A DNA stretch of 58,262 nt from a virus (lineage: Duplodnaviria > Caudoviricetes). Position numbers and translations under genes: made by a program. The notes beneath the pieces were generated by a model. That model was not told where the DNA came from and made no database searches. It saw only the letters and a list, made by a program, of their open reading frames with translations. Of the stretch, positions 24,377-57,518 are shown one piece after another (position 1 is the stretch's first letter; each line of letters opens with the position of its first letter). Location of the stretch: positions 1-58,262 of the IMG/VR virus record IMGVR_UViG_3300044259_000151. One strand, written 5' to 3'.

Positions 24377-24652
24377 ATGACCGCCCGCCGACCAGCGCAA
24401 ATCCCGCCGGGCACATGGCCGCCGCGCATGATGGCGGAAATGGCTGCAGGCTATTGTGGCGAGCGGCATGTGGAGGATTTTCTGGCGCGCGTGGGCACGG
24501 TCTATCCGAAACCGCGCACGCAGGAGACGACACGCCGCAAATTCTGGTATCGCTCTGATCTCGACAAGGCGCTGGGAATTGGCGCAGATAACCAGGTCAA
24601 TGATCTGGGGGCAAAATTCCGTGAGGCGATCCGGGAAAAGCGGCGTGGTTGA
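24377..24652 (+). CDS. xis: Excisionase-like DNA-binding protein
   Basis: WPPRM.AEMAAGYCG...YPKP...WYRSDLD; immediately upstream of int. Confidence 0.7.
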   Translation: MTARRPAQIPPGTWPPRMMAEMAAGYCGERHVEDFLARVGTVYPKPRTQETTRRKFWYRSDLDKALGIGADNQVNDLGAKFREAIREKRRG

Positions 24653-25826
24653 ATTGCCGAAATTCGTGCACCGCGTCAGGAAGACGCGCAAACGCGGGGC
24701 GCCCATGGTCTATACCTTTTATACCCGCCACCGGAACACGTCGGCAGCCTGGCCGTCGCTGGCCCTGCCGGATCCGCTGGAACGCGAGTTTTCCCGCCGG
24801 CTGGCAATCTGCGAGCAGATGGAGCGCGACGGCAGGGGGTTTACGCTGGATGGCGTCCGCCTGCCGGATCACAAGCACCCGGATTTCTGGCGTGAGGCCG
24901 AAAAGGCGCTTTCGGCGCTGGAAAAGCGCGGCCGAGAGAATCGCAGGGATTTCCACGCGCTGGTCGAGGCGTTCCAGAGCGAAAACAACCCGCACTGGTC
25001 CAGCCTTGCCGCATCCACCCGACGCGGCTACGCGGCGAGCGGCAAAATGGTGATCGAGATCTGGGGGGATGATCTGCCGGCCGAGCTGTCAACGGTCAAT
25101 GCGCAGGAGGCAATTGACGCGCTCGGCGAAACGCCCGCGACCGCCAACCAGTTCCGGGCCTACCTGTCCCGCCTCATGGCATGGGGCATCCCGCGCGGCT
25201 TTTGCCACGCAAACCCGGTCGAACACACGGAAAAAATTCCGGGCACGGAGCCGTGGTCACCATGGCCGGAATGGGCCTTCGAGATCCTGCTGCAGCACGC
25301 TCCGTTTCACCTGCAGCTGATTGCCATGAGCGCCTTTTTCACGGGCCAGCGCCAGGGCGATGTGCTGCAAATGCGCCGCCCGAAAAGCGATGACGCCACC
25401 ATTGAGGTCCGCGCCCAGAAAACCGGCCGCACCGTGTGGGTGCCGATCCACTCCGCCTATCGCCGGTGGATCGAGCGCGCCCCGAAGGACGGCATCATGC
25501 TGCACGCCGCCGTGCGCCAGCCGAGTTACAAGACGCCGGACGGTTTCCGCTCGGAATGGCAAAAGCTGATGGACAAGCCCGAATTCAAGCCGTTCCGCGA
25601 ACACCGCATTGTCTTTCACGGCCTGCGCAAAAATGCCGTGATCAATCTGCTTGAGGTCGGCTGCACGGAGGCCCAGGCAGGCGCCATCTGCAACATGTCT
25701 TCGCAAATGGTGCAGCACTATGGCCGCGAGGTATCGCTGCGCGCACTGGCGCGAGACGCCATGAAGCTGATGGAGGAGCGCTGGCCGGAGATCGAGCCCC
25801 TTGCCATGCGCGATCCGCGCCGGTAA
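24645..25826 (+). CDS. int: Tyrosine integrase
   Basis: TGQRQGD (R), QKTG (K), HGLRK (HxxR), QHYG (Y); GTG start overlapping xis; adjacent to attP. Confidence 0.93.
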   Translation: MVELPKFVHRVRKTRKRGAPMVYTFYTRHRNTSAAWPSLALPDPLEREFSRRLAICEQMERDGRGFTLDGVRLPDHKHPDFWREAEKALSALEKRGRENRRDFHALVEAFQSENNPHWSSLAASTRRGYAASGKMVIEIWGDDLPAELSTVNAQEAIDALGETPATANQFRAYLSRLMAWGIPRGFCHANPVEHTEKIPGTEPWSPWPEWAFEILLQHAPFHLQLIAMSAFFTGQRQGDVLQMRRPKSDDATIEVRAQKTGRTVWVPIHSAYRRWIERAPKDGIMLHAAVRQPSYKTPDGFRSEWQKLMDKPEFKPFREHRIVFHGLRKNAVINLLEVGCTEAQAGAICNMSSQMVQHYGREVSLRALARDAMKLMEERWPEIEPLAMRDPRR

Positions 25827-47656: not shown

Positions 47657-48304
47657 TCACCGGATCACAGGCACGCGGTAATTGTTCAACACGTCGAGCA
47701 CATCGGGCGGCAGGTTGCCGGCGTCGGTGCCCGTGGCCACCCACCAGCTGGCATCGCGGACACCTGGAATATTTTCAGATCGCAGCGACGGATCACGCCC
47801 ACCTGCAAAATAACGCGCGGTGACCATGCGGACGATTTTGCCGCGCACATCCGGCGGGATGGTCGCATAACCGGCATCGTACTCAACGACGATGGCAAAC
47901 GTTGGCCAGCGGCGCGGATAGCCGTTGGCATCGAGGCGGATCAGCTGACCCATGTCGGCGTCAATTTTGTAATCCACGTCTTCCACCAAAGCGGTTCCGT
48001 TTTCGACCACGCTTTCAACCGAGACCAGCGGCCAAGTGGTCAATTGCAACGGCATTTCTCCGCCGGGCAACGGACTTGGGATCGCGTCTCGCATCGGCCA
48101 GAACTGGTCGCGGATGCTTTCGACCGCAAACACACGATTGCAGAACTGTTGCGCCGCGGCCGAGGCCTCCTGGATATAGCGCGTCAATTTTGCATCGGCT
48201 TCCGTGCCGGAAATATTCAATTCGTCCTTGACGGTGGCAAGATCGGTCAGATCCTTGCTGGCAGCCGCCTCGAGAACGGTTCGGATCACCGTGCGCAATG
48301 CCAT
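47657..48304 (-). CDS. Head-tail connector (adaptor) protein
   Basis: LTDLATVKDELNI...D..L..YI..AS....FCNR; Y.AGY..IP.D. Confidence 0.82.
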   Translation of the reverse strand: MALRTVIRTVLEAAASKDLTDLATVKDELNISGTEADAKLTRYIQEASAAAQQFCNRVFAVESIRDQFWPMRDAIPSPLPGGEMPLQLTTWPLVSVESVVENGTALVEDVDYKIDADMGQLIRLDANGYPRRWPTFAIVVEYDAGYATIPPDVRGKIVRMVTARYFAGGRDPSLRSENIPGVRDASWWVATGTDAGNLPPDVLDVLNNYRVPVIR

Positions 48305-50185: not shown

Positions 50186-51568
50186 TCAGCCGCGGGTGGC
50201 GAGCGTGACGAACGGCGACAGGGTGTTCGCGCCCTTGTAGGGCGTCAGCGGCGCGTGCCAGATCGGCCGGCCATCGACGCGATAGGTGATGCGGAACACC
50301 ATTTCGTCGGTCAGGAAGGCAACGTGCATGGAGGACGCCATGTTGACGCCGCCCTTGTCGGCCAGAGAGTACTGGCCGAAATCGACCAGCGAAATGTCGC
50401 CTTCCGTGCCCAGCGTATCGGCATATTCGACCGGCATGACCGGGCGCCCGAACAGCGTCCCGTAAGGCTGTCCCGAAATGCCGTTGGCCGGCAGATAGAC
50501 CGGCACACCGGCGGTCCCGATCACCTGAGACATCGAATACAGCTGCGGCTCGACATCCTGATTGATCAGCCACATGGAGTTGGCGCGCGACCGCGCCCAC
50601 ATGCGAGACCACATGTCGAGCACGTTGTCGTAAGTGATGGTCTTGGCCGTCTGCCCGGTTCTCTTGGCGACGGCAACCTTGGCCGGCGAGTTGAGGAAAC
50701 CAAGCGGCATGCCGCCGCCCGAGCCGCGGAACATCGCGTCCTCGGTCATGAACGCGATTTCCTCCGAGAATGCCTGGGTGGCGATTGTGCTCATCACGGA
50801 GGCATCGGCCATCAGTTCGTCGGAAACATACCAGTTGGCCATCAGCTTCTTCAGGTCGAGCTCGACCAGACGGAACTTCGGCTTGCTGCGCGTGGCTGCG
50901 TCACCTTCACCGACCCAGTAGGACTGGACGCCACCCCAACGGCTGCCGGTGGCGCGGCTGGTTTCGTCGACTCCGGGGATCTTGATACCGTTGGCGGCGG
51001 TGGACAACGACAGTTTCTGGGCCTGGCTCATGATCTGGCCCATATCGTAGGCGCGGGCGAACACAGCGGTCGCGAAATCGGTCTGCACCAGGAAGCCGCC
51101 GGCGGACGGATCGACTTCACCGGCACCCGTTGGCGCGCGCTGCAGGCGAGGGTCCATGCGACCAGGGTCGCGCGTAAGGTAATAGTTGGCAACGGCGCGC
51201 AGCTGTTCGCCGAAAGAGCCGAAATGCTGCTGCGGATCCGGCGTGAAATTCAGGGTCGAACGCACACCGCGGATGTAATCGTCAGCGGACCAGGTCTGCC
51301 GCACCGAGCGCGACGCAAGATGGTCCAGCGAAAAGCCGGTCGGGACGGTGATTGCGGTCTGTTCATCGCCCGTTCCGCCGGTGGCCGGACGCGCCAGCGA
51401 CGCCGAGCGCGCGCGCGCCTTGGTCAGGCGGTCGATCTCACCCTGCAGGTCCTCGATTTCCTTTTCCTTGGCGGAATACTTGCCAGCGTCACGCACGAAT
51501 TCATCCGTGCCCAGCTGATCGACAGCCCTGCTCAGGGCCTGGCGGAGTTCGGTCAGTTTATCCATCAT
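50186..51568 (-). CDS. Major capsid protein, HK97 fold with N-terminal delta domain
   Basis: AGGFLV, WVGEG, SDELM.D, G.G.G.PLG, TLFGRPV, FR..YRVDG.P. Confidence 0.95.
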   Translation of the reverse strand: MMDKLTELRQALSRAVDQLGTDEFVRDAGKYSAKEKEIEDLQGEIDRLTKARARSASLARPATGGTGDEQTAITVPTGFSLDHLASRSVRQTWSADDYIRGVRSTLNFTPDPQQHFGSFGEQLRAVANYYLTRDPGRMDPRLQRAPTGAGEVDPSAGGFLVQTDFATAVFARAYDMGQIMSQAQKLSLSTAANGIKIPGVDETSRATGSRWGGVQSYWVGEGDAATRSKPKFRLVELDLKKLMANWYVSDELMADASVMSTIATQAFSEEIAFMTEDAMFRGSGGGMPLGFLNSPAKVAVAKRTGQTAKTITYDNVLDMWSRMWARSRANSMWLINQDVEPQLYSMSQVIGTAGVPVYLPANGISGQPYGTLFGRPVMPVEYADTLGTEGDISLVDFGQYSLADKGGVNMASSMHVAFLTDEMVFRITYRVDGRPIWHAPLTPYKGANTLSPFVTLATRG

Positions 51569-51682
51569 ATATCTCCTTGTGACGGATGAGCCGCGCATGC
51601 GGCAATGTTCCCGCGCCAGGTGGCTGCGGATCTCGGTGGTGTGCGATGTCGGGATACGTGGCGCGCTGGACGCGCAAACAGG

Positions 51683-53326
51683 TCAGGCGGTTGCAGCAAC
51701 CGCGATGCGGAGTTTCATGGCCGCCGCGCGGCGAAGGCGAATGGCGCGCTCGGTTTCGTCCGCATCAACAGCATCACTTTCCTCCGGGGCGCTCTTTTCC
51801 AGAAGTTCGCGGATCATGCCGCATCCGCGGTCGATCATGTCATGCGCTTCATGGAGCATCGCGGCGTTGTCTGAGGAAAGCATCTTTCCGGCGCGGGCCA
51901 TGGATGCGCGAGCGCGATTGCGCAGCAGAGAAACCGCACGGCTGCGGCTGGTGGCCGCATCATCGGTTTCTTCAGCCGGGCCAAGCATGGCAGCCACTTC
52001 TTCGCCGACCAGCTGGACCAGGACCTCACCCAGCGCAGCCTTGATGACCATCAGCTCATCCGGGATCACGGTTTCCTTTTCACGGTATTGCTTTTCCCAG
52101 TCGATATCCTGCTGCACGCAATCGAGGTCGCACAGCACGCTGGCCAGCCAGCTGACATGGTACATGGAGCGCTTGAATTCCTCGATCGTCATTGTGGTTC
52201 CTTTTGATGGTGCGCGCGCTGAAGGCGGGAATTCAGCCTCGACAAGATCGTCACCCCACCCATCGGAAATTTCTTCAAAGCGCTCGGGCCCAAGAACGAT
52301 TGGGCCGTCATAGGCAACCACGTCCGCCGGGGCATCGCGATAGGTGAGCGTCACATGCGGGTGATATTCGGCGAAATCCCACGAAGCGCCGGCATCGCGG
52401 ATTTCCTGCCAGCGAGAGGCAAGGGCGTCGCTGCGGAAGCGCAGCACCTTTGCGCCACCATCGCCGAGCGGCGTGACGGTTCTTGCATCGTCGCGTTCGA
52501 CGGTCAGCTCATCGTCACTAGGCGTCAGACTTGACCAGTCCAGAGGCTCCCGGCTGTAGGCGACGGTGACGTGCATATCCTCGCCGGGCAGCGAGCTGGC
52601 GAAGCCCGCATCGCGCATCCATGACCGGATTTCATCGTGATTAACCACCGGCCGCGATACGTACAAGGTCTTGCCGGATGCACGCTTTCCGATGGGCATG
52701 CGAGCCGCGCGGCGCAGATTTTCAACATCTGCACGCGCCATCATCATCATGCCGCCTTCATCGAGAATGCGGCCTGCCCAATCGAAAATCGGGCTTGTGT
52801 CGATGCCATTGGCGCGGGCCGTCACAAGCGCCGTCGGGAGGGATGGAACGGGCACCTGCGAAATTTCCATCAGGTCCACCAATTCGAAGTCAACGCCGCC
52901 AGGGCGTGATTTGTCGTTGGCAAGACGCCATTTCAGCGGGTCCCATGATACCGAGGTGGCATTGAGATAACCCTCCCTGACCATCTGAAAGATGGTGTCG
53001 GCAAAGGGATAGATTTCCCGGTCCATGTATTCCACGGACCCGGAGAGTACGCCATCGCGCTGCACGAGATCGACGACACGGCCAATCGGCGGCTGCGACA
53101 GATCATGGGCCCAGAGAAACACCGGGTTCCGCAGGTAGTTATCCAGAGTCCAGGCAGCGATCGTGTGATTGTCGCGTGCGACCGACGGGTCGGAAAACAG
53201 ATAGCGGATGATCCGGCCATTGCTGTTGGCAAGATCGACCTGACCAGCGGCACGCATGACGGCGGTCTTTTGCGGGGGCGCACTGGTCACTGCCTGCCGC
53301 GCAAAATCGTCAATCGTGATGGTCAT
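51683..53326 (-). CDS. HK97-type prohead protease with an inserted 2H-phosphoesterase (Acb1-like) domain and a C-terminal helical domain
   Basis: NPVFLWAHD...PIG, GYLNATSV, LMEISQVPVPS.P.A protease motifs; then TLYVSR...HVTVAYS...HPHVTLTY...LGPE.FEEI. Confidence 0.9.
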   Translation of the reverse strand: MTITIDDFARQAVTSAPPQKTAVMRAAGQVDLANSNGRIIRYLFSDPSVARDNHTIAAWTLDNYLRNPVFLWAHDLSQPPIGRVVDLVQRDGVLSGSVEYMDREIYPFADTIFQMVREGYLNATSVSWDPLKWRLANDKSRPGGVDFELVDLMEISQVPVPSLPTALVTARANGIDTSPIFDWAGRILDEGGMMMMARADVENLRRAARMPIGKRASGKTLYVSRPVVNHDEIRSWMRDAGFASSLPGEDMHVTVAYSREPLDWSSLTPSDDELTVERDDARTVTPLGDGGAKVLRFRSDALASRWQEIRDAGASWDFAEYHPHVTLTYRDAPADVVAYDGPIVLGPERFEEISDGWGDDLVEAEFPPSARAPSKGTTMTIEEFKRSMYHVSWLASVLCDLDCVQQDIDWEKQYREKETVIPDELMVIKAALGEVLVQLVGEEVAAMLGPAEETDDAATSRSRAVSLLRNRARASMARAGKMLSSDNAAMLHEAHDMIDRGCGMIRELLEKSAPEESDAVDADETERAIRLRRAAAMKLRIAVAATA

Positions 53327-53769
53327 TGCGCGGTATCCTCCGCAATGGTTGCGGACAGCATCCATGCCCACTTCTTGTGCGCATCCATGCGTTCCTGCAG
53401 GTAATTGCTCAATCCCCGCTCCAGCTGAATGGTTGCTCGCCGGTCGGCCTCACCCAATGCATTAACCACGGCAGCATTGGCATCAATCAGTTCGACAATC
53501 ATGGCGGCGGTTGTCGGAATGCCGGCGAACGTGATGGATGCCGGTGCTGCAATCTCATCGAGCGACGCTGGCGCCATGGCATTGAGCGTGCGGATCCGTT
53601 CGGCCAGGCCGTCAACAGCGCCATGCGCATCCTCGTAAATGTCGCCGAACAGTTCGTGCAGCTGCGGGAAAAGCGGGCCCCGCACGTTCCAGTGAAAACT
53701 GTGCGCCTTGAAATACAGGCACCAGGTTTCGGCCAGCGCCGTCCTGATGGCAGTCAACAGCTCATCCAT
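53323..53769 (-). CDS. dps: Dps-family mini-ferritin
   Basis: KAHSFHWNVRGP.F..LHELF...Y......D.LAERIRTL...H.K..WML; AGGAG RBS; overlaps portal and protease. Confidence 0.93.
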   Translation of the reverse strand: MDELLTAIRTALAETWCLYFKAHSFHWNVRGPLFPQLHELFGDIYEDAHGAVDGLAERIRTLNAMAPASLDEIAAPASITFAGIPTTAAMIVELIDANAAVVNALGEADRRATIQLERGLSNYLQERMDAHKKWAWMLSATIAEDTAQ

Positions 53770-55189
53770 ACACATACTCCTTGTCGCGCAGGAAAGACGA
53801 GCCACCGGCCGCACGAAGACGGCGCGAGATTTCCTCAAGGGCAACGTCATCGTGGCCATGGCGCGGGGCAGCGGCTGCCTTTGCTGCCGTCACGGCCGGG
53901 CCACGCGCCGCAGATTCCTGCTTGCTCGGTCGGCCAGCGTCATCAGGCGCCGTTCCCGTGGACTGGCTGCCCGACGCCGCCATATTCTGCGGGAAATGCA
54001 ATTTGGCGGCCTCGCCGCCTTCCGGGCGCATGCCAAGATCAATGCGGGCCTCATCCGGCGTTGCCATCATTGACATAATCATGGTGCGCCAATTGTTGAC
54101 GCGCGCCGTCATGTCGGCCGTCGTCAGTTCGCGGTAATCGAAATCGATCGAACGACCATCACGCCACAAACCGAACGTGCTTTCGATTTTCCGGCTCCAG
54201 CGGTTGGTGTAACCGGTCAGCGTGTAGTTGACATATTCCTGCGACTGCTGACCGATGTTGTTGTTGGTCGAGCGGTCGAGAATGCCGACCATGTGCATCG
54301 GCACCCGGAAAATGCGCACGACATCCTCAAGCTGAAACTTGCGGGACGCGATGAATTCCAGATCGGCCGATGTCATTTCCAGCGCCGAGAATTTCACGCC
54401 CTGCTCAAGCACCGCAGTTTTGCCAGAGTTCTGCAACCCACCGAACATCGTTCGCCAGTCTGAAGACATGCGTTCGGCGGCGCCCGGCGACAGTTTCTGG
54501 TCCGTCATCAGAATGCCGGACGGCTTGGCACTGTTGCCCATCCAGCGGGCTGCCTGCTGTTCCTGCGCGATCGACAGCCCGATGGCCTCGCGCGCGACCG
54601 AAATGCGCGACACACCCAGAAGCCCATTGAGCGAGAAGCCGCGAATATGCAGCATGTCGCCATCGGGAATGAGAAATGGCTGCCCGGCAAGTTCCGAGCG
54701 CAAATGCAGGCCCTGTGGCGTGACGCGGTAGAACAATCCGCCGTCCGGGGCTTCCCACAGAGCGACCCAATCCGCATTGATCGGGACAAGCTTGATGGGA
54801 TATCCGCGCCGATCGCGCACGATCACTGAATAGGCATTGCCCCGCAGCACAAGGCTGATTTGTTTCTGTTCCCGGTACTCCAGCCCGTTCTGCCAGTCGT
54901 TCGGTTCCTGCAACAAATCCGACAGGTAATGCGCACGATCTTCGACCTTGCTGCCATCGTCCAGGCGCTGGTTCACCGACCATGGCAGTTTTGCCACATC
55001 CTCGGCCAGCATTGTGACGCAGGCCAAAACCGCAGACGCGCTCAAGGCGGACTGCTGATTGACCGCGACCCCGGTAACCGACGGGGTGGAAAACACAGAG
55101 TCCTGCCACATCCGCGGGTCATCCATGCTTTCGGAGCCCGAGCGGCTGTTTGCCCCGCGCGCGATGGTGCCAAAGATGCCACGCGCCAT
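53762..55189 (-). CDS. Portal protein, HK97 family
   Basis: AVLACV..LAEDVAKLP, EPNDWQ, LRGNAY, MLHIRG, AVLEQG, RIFRVP. Confidence 0.95.
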   Translation of the reverse strand: MARGIFGTIARGANSRSGSESMDDPRMWQDSVFSTPSVTGVAVNQQSALSASAVLACVTMLAEDVAKLPWSVNQRLDDGSKVEDRAHYLSDLLQEPNDWQNGLEYREQKQISLVLRGNAYSVIVRDRRGYPIKLVPINADWVALWEAPDGGLFYRVTPQGLHLRSELAGQPFLIPDGDMLHIRGFSLNGLLGVSRISVAREAIGLSIAQEQQAARWMGNSAKPSGILMTDQKLSPGAAERMSSDWRTMFGGLQNSGKTAVLEQGVKFSALEMTSADLEFIASRKFQLEDVVRIFRVPMHMVGILDRSTNNNIGQQSQEYVNYTLTGYTNRWSRKIESTFGLWRDGRSIDFDYRELTTADMTARVNNWRTMIMSMMATPDEARIDLGMRPEGGEAAKLHFPQNMAASGSQSTGTAPDDAGRPSKQESAARGPAVTAAKAAAAPRHGHDDVALEEISRRLRAAGGSSFLRDKEYVYG

Positions 55190-55368
55190 CAGCCAGCCCT
55201 CGATGCCAGATAACTGCCGACGATCGCGAGCGCGCCACCCACGATGAAACCGGCAGCCGGCGTGATGATGTACGCGCCATAGGCAACGCTTCCGGCGCCC
55301 GCAATGCCGACGACATCCCGGACAACAATTGGCGTATAGACCGCAATGGCCCGGAGAACCGTTTTCAA
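55189..55368 (-). CDS. Small membrane protein between terL and portal (59 aa, absent from the ORF track)
   Basis: TAAGGA RBS, TTG start, two hydrophobic segments, TGATG coupling to portal. Confidence 0.7.
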   Translation of the reverse strand: MKTVLRAIAVYTPIVVRDVVGIAGAGSVAYGAYIITPAAGFIVGGALAIVGSYLASRAG

Positions 55369-55377
55369 GGCGTGTCC

Positions 55378-57180
55378 TTATCCGAAAAACAAGAGGCCGC
55401 GATCGGCGGAATAGGCAAGAGCCTGCTGGTAGGGCTCCGGGTTCTTCACCATGACCGTCGCCGCGTTGAACAGCGCGATGGCCGGGTCAATCTTGGCGTC
55501 ACCCGCCGTCTGCTTGGTCGCGCGGATGGCGGTCGCCGTGGGCTCGATTTTCAGGTTGGGCACACACCAGCGCATCAGCGGGCCACCGGTGTGCAGCAGC
55601 ATGCCATTCGAGAGACCGCGCTCGCAGGTCTTGATCGGGTTCATCAGGGCAAAACCCTGCGGCACGCCGACAAGCAGGCCATTATCCTGCGTGATATCCA
55701 CATCCGGCGCGGCCATGGCCTCGACGAAATCGCCCAGGCAGGCAGGGTCAACGGCGGTGGCGGCCAGCAAATCCCTGTCTTTCACCAGACGGATGATTTC
55801 GATGATGGCGGCAATATCCTCGAGCGCCGTATCGAAAATCGTCAACTGGCCGGATTTCTGAATATCCAGCAGGATCGGCGCAATTTTCTTGCGCCGCTTG
55901 AGCACGTCCCGGTGGCAAAACGCATGCGACCAGGCAAGCCAGCGCTTTCTGGATGCACGGCCGCCCATCGGAAACATTTTTCCGGTAAGTTCGACTTCAT
56001 CCTGTTCGCGGCCGAGGACGCAAAGACCGAACAGGTCATCCAGGCCACCGCCATCAATGCCAACGACCGCGACTTCGCAACGGTCAAGCAGCCGATCCAG
56101 CGCCTCGAAATGCGGCAGGGCGGCCAGTTCCGGATCTTCCGCCCGGTCCCAGTAATCCGAGCCGACCCAGCGGTTGGCCCGGTTGCGCATGCCGATTTCG
56201 ACATTGAGGTGCTTTGCCAGAAAGCTCTGGACGGTGTCCCGCTCCTCATCCGCGCCGGAACGCACGTTCTGGAATTTCCGCTCCAGCCAATCCTGGCGCA
56301 CCGATCGCCCCATATTGGGGTTGGTGATGTACCAGTTGGCCGGGTCGAGATAGGCCTCGTTTTCCAGCATCGCATCCGGGAACTCGTAGAGTACCGGCAG
56401 GGAGGCTGGATCGTCGATCTTGCCATCGCGAACATCGCGAAAATAATCCAGCTTTTCCTTGAACACGCCGGCCGGAGGCTCATCCGATTGCGTGGTGATG
56501 TAGATGACGAACCCTTCCGGGCGCGAAATCAGGCCGCCGGTGGCCTCCTGCAACATCGCGCTGGCGCCGGCTTTCTTGCCAAACAGCCACAGCTCCTCGA
56601 CCAGAACGAACGCAGCTTTCTTGCCCGAGGCCGTCTTGCTGTCTGCCGACACAACCTTCAGGACCGCGCCGGTCAGTTCGTGCGTGATCTGCTTCAGCTG
56701 ATCCTGCACGCGCAGCAATTTTACCAGCTCCGGATCCGCGCGCACCATGGCGGCCGCCGGCTTGAAACTGTTGCCAGCCACCTCCTGCGTGGGGGCCAGG
56801 ATCAGCAGTTCCTGATGATGACGCCAATTGCGGATGAGCGCCGTCAGCATGATGCCGGCGGCGATGGTGGACTTGATGTTCTTCTTCGAGATGAGGAGCA
56901 TGAACTCCTCAATGTGCCGTTTGGCATTCGCTGCATCGTAGGCGCCGAAAATGGCGGCCACGAAATCAAACACATAGGGCTCGCAGACTTCGCCGAATGT
57001 CGGGTGCCGGTGGCGCTCCAGCCTGCGATCGTAGAACTGTGGCAGGTCGCAGATCTGCAGGTCGCGGAACACCGATAACGCCGCCTCAGCCTCGTCGGGA
57101 AACAGAGGCTCAAACGGGATCAGGCTTTCGCGCGCAACGATGCGGCGCTCCCAATCCGGGCAGGCGGTTGTCCAGCGCAT
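55378..57180 (-). CDS. terL: Terminase large subunit
   Basis: WTTACPDW, KKNIKS Walker A variant, VEELW Walker B, ITTQS, GIDGGGLDDL, KIDP. Confidence 0.95.
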   Translation of the reverse strand: MRWTTACPDWERRIVARESLIPFEPLFPDEAEAALSVFRDLQICDLPQFYDRRLERHRHPTFGEVCEPYVFDFVAAIFGAYDAANAKRHIEEFMLLISKKNIKSTIAAGIMLTALIRNWRHHQELLILAPTQEVAGNSFKPAAAMVRADPELVKLLRVQDQLKQITHELTGAVLKVVSADSKTASGKKAAFVLVEELWLFGKKAGASAMLQEATGGLISRPEGFVIYITTQSDEPPAGVFKEKLDYFRDVRDGKIDDPASLPVLYEFPDAMLENEAYLDPANWYITNPNMGRSVRQDWLERKFQNVRSGADEERDTVQSFLAKHLNVEIGMRNRANRWVGSDYWDRAEDPELAALPHFEALDRLLDRCEVAVVGIDGGGLDDLFGLCVLGREQDEVELTGKMFPMGGRASRKRWLAWSHAFCHRDVLKRRKKIAPILLDIQKSGQLTIFDTALEDIAAIIEIIRLVKDRDLLAATAVDPACLGDFVEAMAAPDVDITQDNGLLVGVPQGFALMNPIKTCERGLSNGMLLHTGGPLMRWCVPNLKIEPTATAIRATKQTAGDAKIDPAIALFNAATVMVKNPEPYQQALAYSADRGLLFFG

Positions 57181-57197
57181 GCGCGGTATGACCTTGG

Positions 57198-57518
57198 TCA
57201 GGCGGCCGGCTGGCTCTGCTGCCACAGAGATTGGCGCAGCAAGTATCCCTCAAAAGCCCAAATCTTGTTGCGGGCATTGTCGCGAGCGATCTTGCGGCCG
57301 ATCTCTTGATCAAAATTTTCCGGGCTGGCGGCCGCACTTTCCCCAGTCACGCAAAAGCCGTTCTGCAGCGTCAGGCAGCACACCGTTAGCGTCGTTCCGT
57401 GGAAAACATGGTATTGCTCGCCGGCAATCTGCGCGTCAATCAGCTCCGGCGTCAGCCGCGGCGCCTTCAAGCCCTTGGCCTGAATTTCCGCCTCGATGGC
57501 CTGTTCATCTTTCACCAT
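57198..57518 (-). CDS. Gp49 / Sf6 gp66 family protein (candidate nucleotide-signal sponge)
   Basis: APRLTP..ID..I, LTVC.L.LQNGF.VTGESA.ASPENFD.EIGRKIA..NA..KIW..EGY.L. Confidence 0.85.
   Translation of the reverse strand: MVKDEQAIEAEIQAKGLKAPRLTPELIDAQIAGEQYHVFHGTTLTVCCLTLQNGFCVTGESAAASPENFDQEIGRKIARDNARNKIWAFEGYLLRQSLWQQSQPAA

Follow-up and report, generated by a model that had tools for sequence, protein, structure and literature searches.

A Dps mini-ferritin in a phage head operon and its protease-fused relatives in uncultured tailed phages

What would a mini-ferritin do among the head genes of a tailed phage? The question is raised by a 58,262-bp IMG/VR virus record, IMGVR_UViG_3300044259_000151 (here called the window, meaning that whole stretch of DNA; complete-looking, CheckV 100%), in which a gene for a 148-amino-acid Dps protein lies between the portal gene and a gene that a sequence-only reading had named the prohead protease. 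That reading had proposed three functions for Dps: late protection of DNA during packaging, a counter to killing linked to iron or reactive oxygen species (ROS), and a role as capsid cargo. As judged from sequence and predicted structure, the window Dps is a real, intact Dps-type mini-ferritin of a phage-specific lineage. Furthermore, the fusion of Dps to the prohead protease in one predicted polypeptide is widespread in uncultured phages, and we did not find it described in print; no paper linking the two proteins turned up in full-text literature searches, the coverage of which leaves most subscription journals outside.

Is the gene product truly a Dps? It matches the Pfam Ferritin family PF00210 over residues 7 to 144 (60.2 bits against a cut-off of 24.5; E 2.8e-16), and an AlphaFold2 model built from a 34-sequence alignment, which took in 34 of the 120 homologues listed, has a predicted local distance difference test (pLDDT) value of 95.5. 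In this model, helices at residues 2-28, 34-61, 70-74, 87-114, and 118-147 make up a four-helix bundle with the short BC-loop helix. By Foldseek, the best match is the P. aeruginosa Dps PA0962 (8ff9; TM 0.90, 36% identity), more than 20 solved Dps chains lie at TM 0.88 to 0.91, and there are fold matches to Lactobacillus phage Semele and to phage G gp346 (TM 0.88); a profile search against PDB likewise returns 8ff9 (E 9.4e-38). The ferroxidase ligands H26 and W27 (HWNV), H38 (LHELF), and D53 and E57 (DGLAER) are invariant in all 34 aligned sequences and align, in a profile alignment, with the equivalent residues of 8ff9 and 1n1q. Family match, fold, and ligands thus bear out the earlier call of a 148-amino-acid Dps with the expected motifs HWNV, LHELF, and D.LAER. 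Counting four positions on from the second His, the residue is Gly42 rather than Asp; an Asp at this place is presumably a secondary ferroxidase-site residue in Dps. The sequence-only reading had also seen no obvious basic DNA-binding tail, and we agree: there is none of the basic tail of E. coli-type DNA-binding Dps, helix A begins at residue 2, the C terminus is acidic (SATIAEDTAQ), and the protein contains 20 D+E against 11 K+R. With respect to named families, the window Dps scores below the NCBIfam equivalog cut-offs for haloarchaeal DpsA (51.5 against 170), Dps PRK09448 (41.4 against 114), and cyanobacterial DpsA (37 against 300).

The link between Dps and the prohead protease comes from relatives in which both lie in one polypeptide. 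A fold search against predicted viral structures placed Dps folds in proteins named "Prohead protease" of 333, 432, and 763 amino acids and in long "Dps" proteins of 290 to 679 amino acids, all from uncultured Caudovirales. At a locus that we call L006, matches to Ferritin (8.6e-11) and Peptidase_S78 (4.2e-47) lie in one frame, in 448 analyzed amino acids within a 470-amino-acid open reading frame (ORF); the portal gene and an 89-amino-acid ORF lie upstream, and a 395-amino-acid ORF lies downstream. A search for longer homologues with the window Dps returned only 4 proteins, and it was through the fold search and a search with L006 that the fusions surfaced. In the latter, HMMER compared the L006 protein with 1.84 billion cluster representatives and reported 23,925 matches; the best 150 were classified with local Dps and S78 profiles. 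Both domains were present in 30 of these 150, with Dps preceding S78 in 20 and S78 preceding Dps in 10; the others were 9 long Dps proteins without S78 (one of them a tandem Dps-Dps protein), 4 short Dps proteins, and 107 proteins with S78 only. Pfam, applied to the 39 long Dps-containing proteins, recovered Ferritin in all 39, S78 in 27, and S78_2 (XkdF-type) in 3, together with extra domains of the HAD phosphatase (6), Hva1_TUDOR (4), AAA_33 (2), Zeta_toxin (1), and RelA_SpoT (1) families. The tandem architecture is that of P0139, 777 amino acids long, which carries two Dps domains, and P0126, L405, L407, and L414 are larger polyproteins among the HAD/Dps/S78 and other multidomain fusions.

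The same arrangement was found in IMG/VR, which was scanned with an alignment of 8 of the 20 fusions in which Dps comes first. Among the best 80 of 586 loci, which were kept, 58 were colinear for both domains, 4 were cut by the contig end, and 18 matched Dps only; all seven loci opened among the 58 are single ORFs, as is L006. At L452, TerL, an HK97 portal, a 465-amino-acid Dps-S78 protein whose start abuts the portal stop, and a capsid protein follow one another, which is the window order with Dps and protease joined, and the fused Dps domain of this locus is 38% identical to the window Dps (E 4e-32). At L407, a 672-amino-acid HAD-Dps-S78 protein is followed by the capsid protein. In the collection of cultured phages, no record spans the two domains, and none of the 649 matching records reaches 80% coverage. 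Set beside the fused loci, at which Dps and S78 occupy one polypeptide, the window Dps would represent the split counterpart of a layout that is frequent among uncultured phages.

The fused domains keep their predicted active sites: no ferroxidase ligand varies among the 8 aligned fusions, nor do conserved His and Ser positions of the protease domain, and throughout the 39 long proteins the W, the second H, and the D are invariant, the first H and the E being kept in at least 90%. In the ten proteins in which S78 comes first, Dps is placed between the protease and a C-terminal tail, and Acb1 holds the same internal position in the window polyprotein that follows Dps. Four of these ten (P0241, P0248, P0262, and P0272) have a common C-terminal end motif, ..APWL.PY.QR.L....EE, a candidate for a capsid-binding peptide. 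In the subclade to which the window Dps belongs, some unfused Dps proteins have basic C-terminal tails (e.g., ..RKKMRSLYRGNRL) with a suggestive likeness to one fusion end (..RMRNLEVARLYLRG).

How, then, is the window gene itself built into its operon? The window has a GC content of approximately 61% throughout and no tRNA genes in its 58,262 bp. Among sequencing runs, two DNA runs, both sediment metagenomes and possibly the source, contain the sequence, and no RNA run does. The features that bear on the question are listed below.

55378 to 57225, minus strand: large terminase, TerL (Pfam TerL_ATPase 2.5e-11, TerL_nuclease 4.7e-12)
55189 to 55368, minus strand: small predicted membrane protein of 59 amino acids between TerL and portal (phrog_502 "membrane protein" 4.5e-11; no Pfam match)
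53762 to 55189, minus strand: HK97-family portal (Pfam Phage_portal PF04860, 4.5e-89)
53777 to 53782, minus strand: Shine-Dalgarno sequence AAGGAG of Dps, read from the junction sequence
53323 to 53769, minus strand: Dps mini-ferritin, 148 amino acids plus stop (PF00210 2.8e-16; phrog_3636 2.6e-25)
53323 to 53326, minus strand: ATGA overlap of the Dps stop TGA and the ATG of the protease polyprotein, from the junction sequence
51683 to 53326, minus strand: head polyprotein of 547 amino acids with a probable S78/HK97-type protease N-domain, Acb1, and a helical C-region, from profile searches
52799 to 53164, minus strand: probable S78 prohead protease domain, approximately amino acids 55 to 176 (Pfam S78 6.1e-4; TIGR01543 2.5e-7; phrog_80 6.7e-7)
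52250 to 52672, minus strand: Acb1 domain, a 2H phosphodiesterase directed against the cyclic oligonucleotide-based antiphage signaling system (CBASS) (Pfam PF23474, 5e-35)
50186 to 51598, minus strand: HK97-fold major capsid protein (Pfam Phage_capsid PF05065, 2.2e-46)
47657 to 48304, minus strand: head-tail adaptor, the downstream limit of the head module (phrog_442, 1.4e-33)
24456 to 25826, plus strand: tyrosine-integrase-like gene (match at 25299-25721; PF00589, E 8.1e-8, 27.4 bits, barely above the cut-off)

The Dps start overlaps the portal gene by 8 nucleotides, the portal stop (53764-53762) falling within the first Dps codons, and the ribosome-binding site of Dps, AAGGAG at 53782-53777, lies 7 nucleotides ahead of the ATG at 53769. 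At the other end, the Dps stop TGA (53325-53323) overlaps the ATG of the next gene (53326-53324) as ATGA, and GGAGGA at 53341-53336 stands 9 nucleotides upstream of the polyprotein ATG. The junction sequence thus confirms the earlier statement that Dps has its own ribosome-binding site and overlaps both neighbors, and the ATGA overlap would couple Dps and the protease polyprotein by termination and reinitiation. A programmed frameshift from Dps into the protease, which lies in the -1 frame with respect to Dps, was considered and rejected, as no slippery heptamer precedes the stop. On the minus strand between 49500 and 58262, no promoter-like site was found and terminator-like sites were fewer than expected from shuffled sequence; a promoter or terminator belonging to Dps itself was likewise rejected, the single intragenic terminator-like hairpin being part of that below-chance count. 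The GC content, overall and at third codon positions, is 0.591/0.691 for Dps, 0.607/0.729 for the portal gene, and 0.604/0.681 for the protease gene. Late expression of Dps is something that we infer from the operon structure only.

Is this order conserved beyond the window? On a 1.1-kb metagenome contig (L172; portal 61%, Dps 62%), portal-ATGA-Dps-ATGA-protease repeats the window arrangement exactly, and the protease N terminus reads MKISPDEFAAAA there against MTITIDDFARQA in the window. The metagenome scan gave L172 and L171 as the only close Dps loci. Within the window subclade, the order is Dps, a 92-amino-acid ORF, TerS, and TerL at L171 (Dps 57%) and protease/scaffold, Dps, and capsid protein at L094 (Dps 53%), which is another position in a head module, while at L004 Dps lies among cytidyltransferase-like genes. 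Rhizobium sp. SGZ-381 has a Dps that is 86% identical to that of the window and a 548-amino-acid homologue of the protease-Acb1 protein (77% over the Acb1 region); the same 34816-base longest contig is listed for both, which suggests that the two genes share one contig, adjacency not being implied.

A survey of 88 IMG/VR Dps loci provided 85 upstream and 85 downstream neighbor ORFs. Most frequent among the former were cytidyltransferases (15), DUF6321 proteins (11), Crp-like helix-turn-helix proteins (8), and small terminases (7), with 2 portals and 2 S78-type proteases; the latter included 6 large terminases and 1 or 2 capsid proteins. At approximately 7 loci among L091 to L170, Dps has a late-module position between the small and large terminase genes: a T4-type TerS makes up 7 of the 85 upstream neighbors, and TerL makes up 6 of the 85 downstream ones. 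Cytidyltransferase-like genes (phrog_3041, phrog_395) stand directly before or around Dps, for example at L002 and L004/L005, and other Dps genes stand beside DUF6321. By its gene neighborhoods, phage Dps is a widespread accessory gene found in several contexts, of which head and packaging modules are a recurrent minority.

The portal-protease junction was also viewed from the side of the portal. Portal and protease are directly adjacent in many of 70 IMG/VR relatives of the window portal, and gaps of 0.5 to 3.4 kb separate them in others. Four of these slots were opened by hand. One holds a ParE toxin/Phd antitoxin pair on the opposite strand (L271:6262-6878, minus strand); two hold an extra 352-amino-acid HK97-fold protein between portal and protease (L256:2631-3689 and L262:3539-4597; PF05065, 2e-39 and 1.2e-36), both loci having a downstream capsid-like gene besides; and at L254 the protease carries an N-terminal extension of approximately 200 amino acids.

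What function would explain these findings? The prohead protease acts inside the procapsid in HK97- and T4-type systems, and the termini of Dps are on the outside of the 12-mer. Intact Dps has been fused to the protease repeatedly, in both orders, and beside other enzyme domains, and the fusions are most simply read as the product of selection for a shared place, the procapsid core. The explanation that we favor, with the scales standing about level, is a ferroxidase cage that cooperates with the core of protease and scaffold, either at the head or within it, and shields packaged DNA from Fe/H2O2 chemistry. In this scenario, Dps would be made alongside the protease/scaffold core during procapsid assembly, in series with the portal and the polyprotein, and would form a 12-subunit cage that oxidizes Fe(II) with H2O2 or O2 at inter-subunit ferroxidase sites. 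Acting at, and probably inside, the assembling head, it would keep iron and peroxide from the DNA under packaging and storage. For the window Dps we thus infer a dodecamer, ferroxidase activity, a physical association with the protease or the capsid, and a protective effect; a function at or inside the capsid is plausible for this unfused protein. A complex prediction of the window Dps with the whole protease-Acb1 polyprotein scored 0.00 against a mark of 0.32, which is no evidence either way. None of the three functions offered by the sequence-only reading is directly shown, but the role in the capsid or in head assembly gains indirect support from the covalent Dps-S78 fusions at the same place in the head module and from the reported detection of phage G gp346 in particles.

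Several observations weigh against a place for Dps at or in the head. The window Dps has neither a fusion nor an extension usable as a targeting peptide, and a Dps is found in none of the 70 IMG/VR loci with a related portal (28% to 70% identity). By the genes that it harbors, the portal-protease junction is a variable accessory slot; because it accepts unrelated accessory genes, position alone is weak evidence for function. Head genes are not the neighbors of most phage Dps genes surveyed (85 plus 85 neighbors), and when 248 Dps loci from viruses and metagenomes were scanned with a local S78 profile, only 2 showed a protease. Fusion could, moreover, serve timing, stoichiometry, or oligomerization instead of packaging. 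Finally, a folded Dps 12-mer has dimensions too large for exit through the tail, so that a role after DNA ejection is unlikely.

In keeping with several of these points, Dps might be a soluble, late-expressed protein, a cytoplasmic scavenger of Fe(II) and H2O2 that preserves the infected cell and the DNA under replication or packaging, shares only its timing with the head genes, and never enters the capsid. Such a protein could well be unfused and tailless, as that of the window is, its gene would lie outside head modules in most phages, and a junction that hosts unrelated accessory genes could host it too; it is also the function that two papers propose for phage Dps (PMC8008677, PMC6669764). 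This explanation nevertheless leaves the repeated covalent fusion to the prohead protease, in both orders, without a reason, and the coupled portal-Dps-protease order preserved at approximately 61% identity also speaks against it. We regard a purely cytoplasmic Dps as the main alternative, a serious possibility although on balance a doubtful one.

The fusions also allow a structural role, in which the Dps 12-mer is an oligomerization hub that concentrates or activates the protease/scaffold and the iron chemistry is secondary. Fusions of this kind would display up to 12 protease/scaffold arms per cage, and the L006 fusion model, in which a low-confidence and probably disordered linker of approximately 80 residues connects two folded domains, would suit such a geometry; that Dps tolerates passengers is evident from engineered chimeras in PDB (e.g., 7rzq, 8fa1). 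However, the 8 aligned fusions show no change at any ligand, and every ligand is retained by at least 90% of the 39 long proteins, which argues that Dps chemistry is under selection. Furthermore, the window Dps is untethered, and since all 70 portal relatives do without Dps, the protein appears to be dispensable for the assembly of this head type. We consider a hub role improbable.

Was the gene recently taken from a host? A word-indexed search found 158 relatives of the window Dps at E<=1e-3, the closest being the 86% identical protein of Rhizobium sp. SGZ-381, with Bradyrhizobium and Shinella proteins at 56% to 59%. At least 585 IMG/VR stretches encode a relative (best 53% among the matches listed), as do at least 595 stretches of species-representative genomes (best only 42% among the matches listed); in a second IMG/VR scan, run with patterns of the close family, no match exceeded 44%, and the 56 Dps records of cultured phages are all less than 60% identical to the window Dps, the best at 32%. 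None of 401 genomes sampled from the order of a Rhodobiaceae metagenome-assembled genome (MAG), an order that may not be that of the host, matches at E<=1e-30, a result of little weight.

A FastTree phylogeny was computed from 379 distinct rows (443 before identical rows were collapsed) and 145 columns, with matches of fewer than 115 aligned residues dropped, proteins longer than 200 amino acids cut to their first 175 residues, and the best 80 of the at least 595 genome stretches taken as genome rows; FastTree on few columns is a quick method, and the deep order is uncertain. The window Dps falls in a clade of 259 of the 379 rows with a stem of 0.55 substitutions per site (support 99), and within it in a subclade of 44 rows (support 96). 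This large clade holds 134 of 134 IMG/VR rows, 45 of 46 metagenome rows, and 78 of 119 unlabelled database rows, and only 1 of the 79 genome-derived rows, themselves from the best 80. That row, L012, is a 4.8-kb contig of a GTDB "Bathyarchaeia" MAG and is probably a viral contig binned into the MAG. On this tree, the window Dps belongs to a large lineage that consists almost entirely of viral and metagenomic sequences. The sequence-only reading had considered a one-off recent host capture, a scenario that is contradicted here: because of the viral and metagenomic clade, the synteny at approximately 61%, and the NCBIfam equivalog scores below cut-off, the window Dps does not appear to be a recent host capture.

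Prophage copies of Dps certainly occur in bacterial genomes, which is a caveat on this reading of the tree. Dps might also be a lysogenic-conversion gene, a moron that benefits the lysogen through tolerance of oxidative stress or iron and that reached the head module by chance insertion. The phage is probably temperate, judging by its tyrosine-integrase-like gene; close homologues are present in Rhizobium and Bradyrhizobium genomes; and in Clostridium phage phiCT9441A, Dps is a gene of the early region on the opposite strand. In the window, however, Dps shares its strand with the two head genes that it overlaps, the scan for promoter-like sites was negative, and its composition is like that of its neighbors. 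The protease fusion in relatives is, in addition, incompatible with expression from a repressed prophage, and a moron is in our view a very improbable explanation.

What is the gene to which Dps is coupled? Its earlier naming as a prohead protease stands in part: there is a probable S78/HK97 protease N-domain, by a weak match, but the protein is not a plain protease and instead has three parts, with Acb1 and a helical C-region behind the protease. The N-domain scores 20.4 bits against the Pfam S78 cut-off of 21 (E 6.1e-4) and 30.9 against the TIGR01543 cut-off of 59 (E 2.5e-7). Its relatives at 40% to 64% identity exceed the S78 cut-off (L271, 30.6 bits), and a local hidden Markov model made from relatives of the window protease detects the canonical S78 domain of L006 at 3.6e-28; by these profiles, the S78/HK97 assignment is weak but probable. 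The C-region terminates in a basic amphipathic helix (..RLRRAAAMKLRIAVAATA), and fusions with Dps first, as well as some with S78 first, end likewise.

Some relatives have the protease N-domain and the C-region without Acb1; among the 70 IMG/VR portal relatives, none has the Acb1 insert, and one homologue with Acb1, P0276, is 547 amino acids long. Precomputed Pfam labels of 94 long homologues of the window Acb1 region describe mainly DUF1073-type portals with Acb1, the other partners being a Mu-type portal, HK97 portals (3), S78_2 (7), S78 (1), and PF09979 (3). Among these 94, Acb1 is, by label, mostly fused to head proteins. Prohead proteases are reported to activate CBASS (2026 preprint 10.64898/2026.03.04.709575); the words "fusion" and "fused" are absent from its text. 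In the protease-Acb1 gene, the reported trigger of CBASS and its antidote would be a single polypeptide.

This neighborhood raises the question of whether Dps, parallel to Acb1, neutralizes an iron- or ROS-dependent host response. Dps adjoins and is coupled to a polyprotein with anti-CBASS Acb1, Acb1 itself is widely fused to portals and proteases, and the fusion proteins of Dps also bear HAD, zeta-toxin-like kinase, and RelA/SpoT domains. The chemistry of Dps is generic, however, and we know of no defense system that Dps would counter; our literature searches turned up none. A counterdefense role thus seems to us a distant prospect.

Returning to the ferroxidase cage at or inside the head, what would it mean if it were true? 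Phage Dps genes have hitherto been treated as scattered auxiliary genes that aid the oxygen tolerance of the host, whereas coupling or fusion to the prohead protease marks a sizeable part of the viral and metagenomic Dps lineage. Were Dps carried in heads, an internal antioxidant iron cage would protect the stored DNA and would be a new factor in virion decay in iron- and peroxide-rich waters and sediments. Its carriage there would also offer a case, occurring in nature, of an enzyme loaded as cargo into HK97-type capsids, and a tangible link from phage capsids to encapsulins that hold ferritins. More tentatively, and with rather less confidence than we have in the cage itself, we suggest that tailed phages load a Dps cage into capsids by way of the protease/scaffold polyprotein, fused or coupled, that this polyprotein is a general cargo-loading device in which Dps, Acb1, and HAD take the same positions, and that the result is a viral counterpart, and possibly the source, of iron-storing encapsulins.

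How does the window Dps compare with systems already known? Cellular Dps proteins such as 8ff9 and B. brevis 1n1q have the same four-helix bundle, short BC helix, and H/W/H/D/E ligands. In contrast to them, the window Dps belongs to a separate, long-stemmed viral and metagenomic clade below the NCBIfam Dps and DpsA cut-offs; unlike E. coli-type DNA-binding Dps, it is acidic and has no basic tail; and its gene lies inside a phage head operon, whereas cellular dps is a stress-regulated single gene.

Among phages, Dps genes have been described in gut "Gratiaviridae" and 36 other phages, with a proposed role in oxidative stress or host tolerance (PMC8008677), and in Lactobacillus plantarum myophages, near DNA-metabolism genes and with oxidative-stress tolerance proposed (PMC6669764). 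The ferritin-like gp346 of phage G is reported to have been detected by viral particle proteomics, its authors suggesting that it binds DNA or metal and guards against DNA damage (PMC12484599), and the ferritin-like gp217 of a Vi01-like phage was seen by mass spectrometry (PMC10892097). The printed phage Dps proteins (PMC8008677, PMC6669764, PMC12484599) are of the same family as the window Dps (phrog_3636), and the accessible portions of these papers make no mention of coupling or fusion to a prohead protease.

A closer parallel in gene architecture is offered by the "polyvalent proteins" of Iyer et al. 2017 (PMC5512222), in which 2H domains are fused to MuF and portal proteins and are proposed to be packaged. 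The window protein made of protease, Acb1, and tail is such a fusion, and Dps-protease fusions follow the same logic, but their passenger is a cage-forming iron enzyme instead of a nuclease or nucleotide enzyme, and the window Dps is a separate polypeptide. In the main text of that paper (PMC5512222), "ferritin" and "Dps" have 0 occurrences each.

The internal proteins of phage T4 are alike in concept, nonstructural proteins being carried into the prohead core together with protease and scaffold. A capsid-targeting sequence brings them in, the prohead protease cleaves them, and they stay in the head. The window Dps differs in having no recognizable T4-like targeting sequence, its protease is of the S78, HK97 type, and ejection of a 12-mer would be unlikely.

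Encapsulins confine the iron chemistry of a ferritin-like cargo inside a capsid-like shell. In the EncFtn, Flp, and IMEF systems, the gene for an HK97-fold shell lies near a gene of the ferritin superfamily, as in the window. Unlike encapsulins, however, the window is a complete phage with terminase, portal, protease, and head-tail adaptor, and its ferritin-like protein is of the Dps type, presumably a 12-mer, and not EncFtn. By its sequence and in the 34-sequence alignment, the window Dps shows neither a C-terminal cargo-loading peptide nor any C-terminal extension. Where encapsulins use a loading peptide, the loading device in relatives of the window would be the covalent fusion of Dps to the prohead protease.

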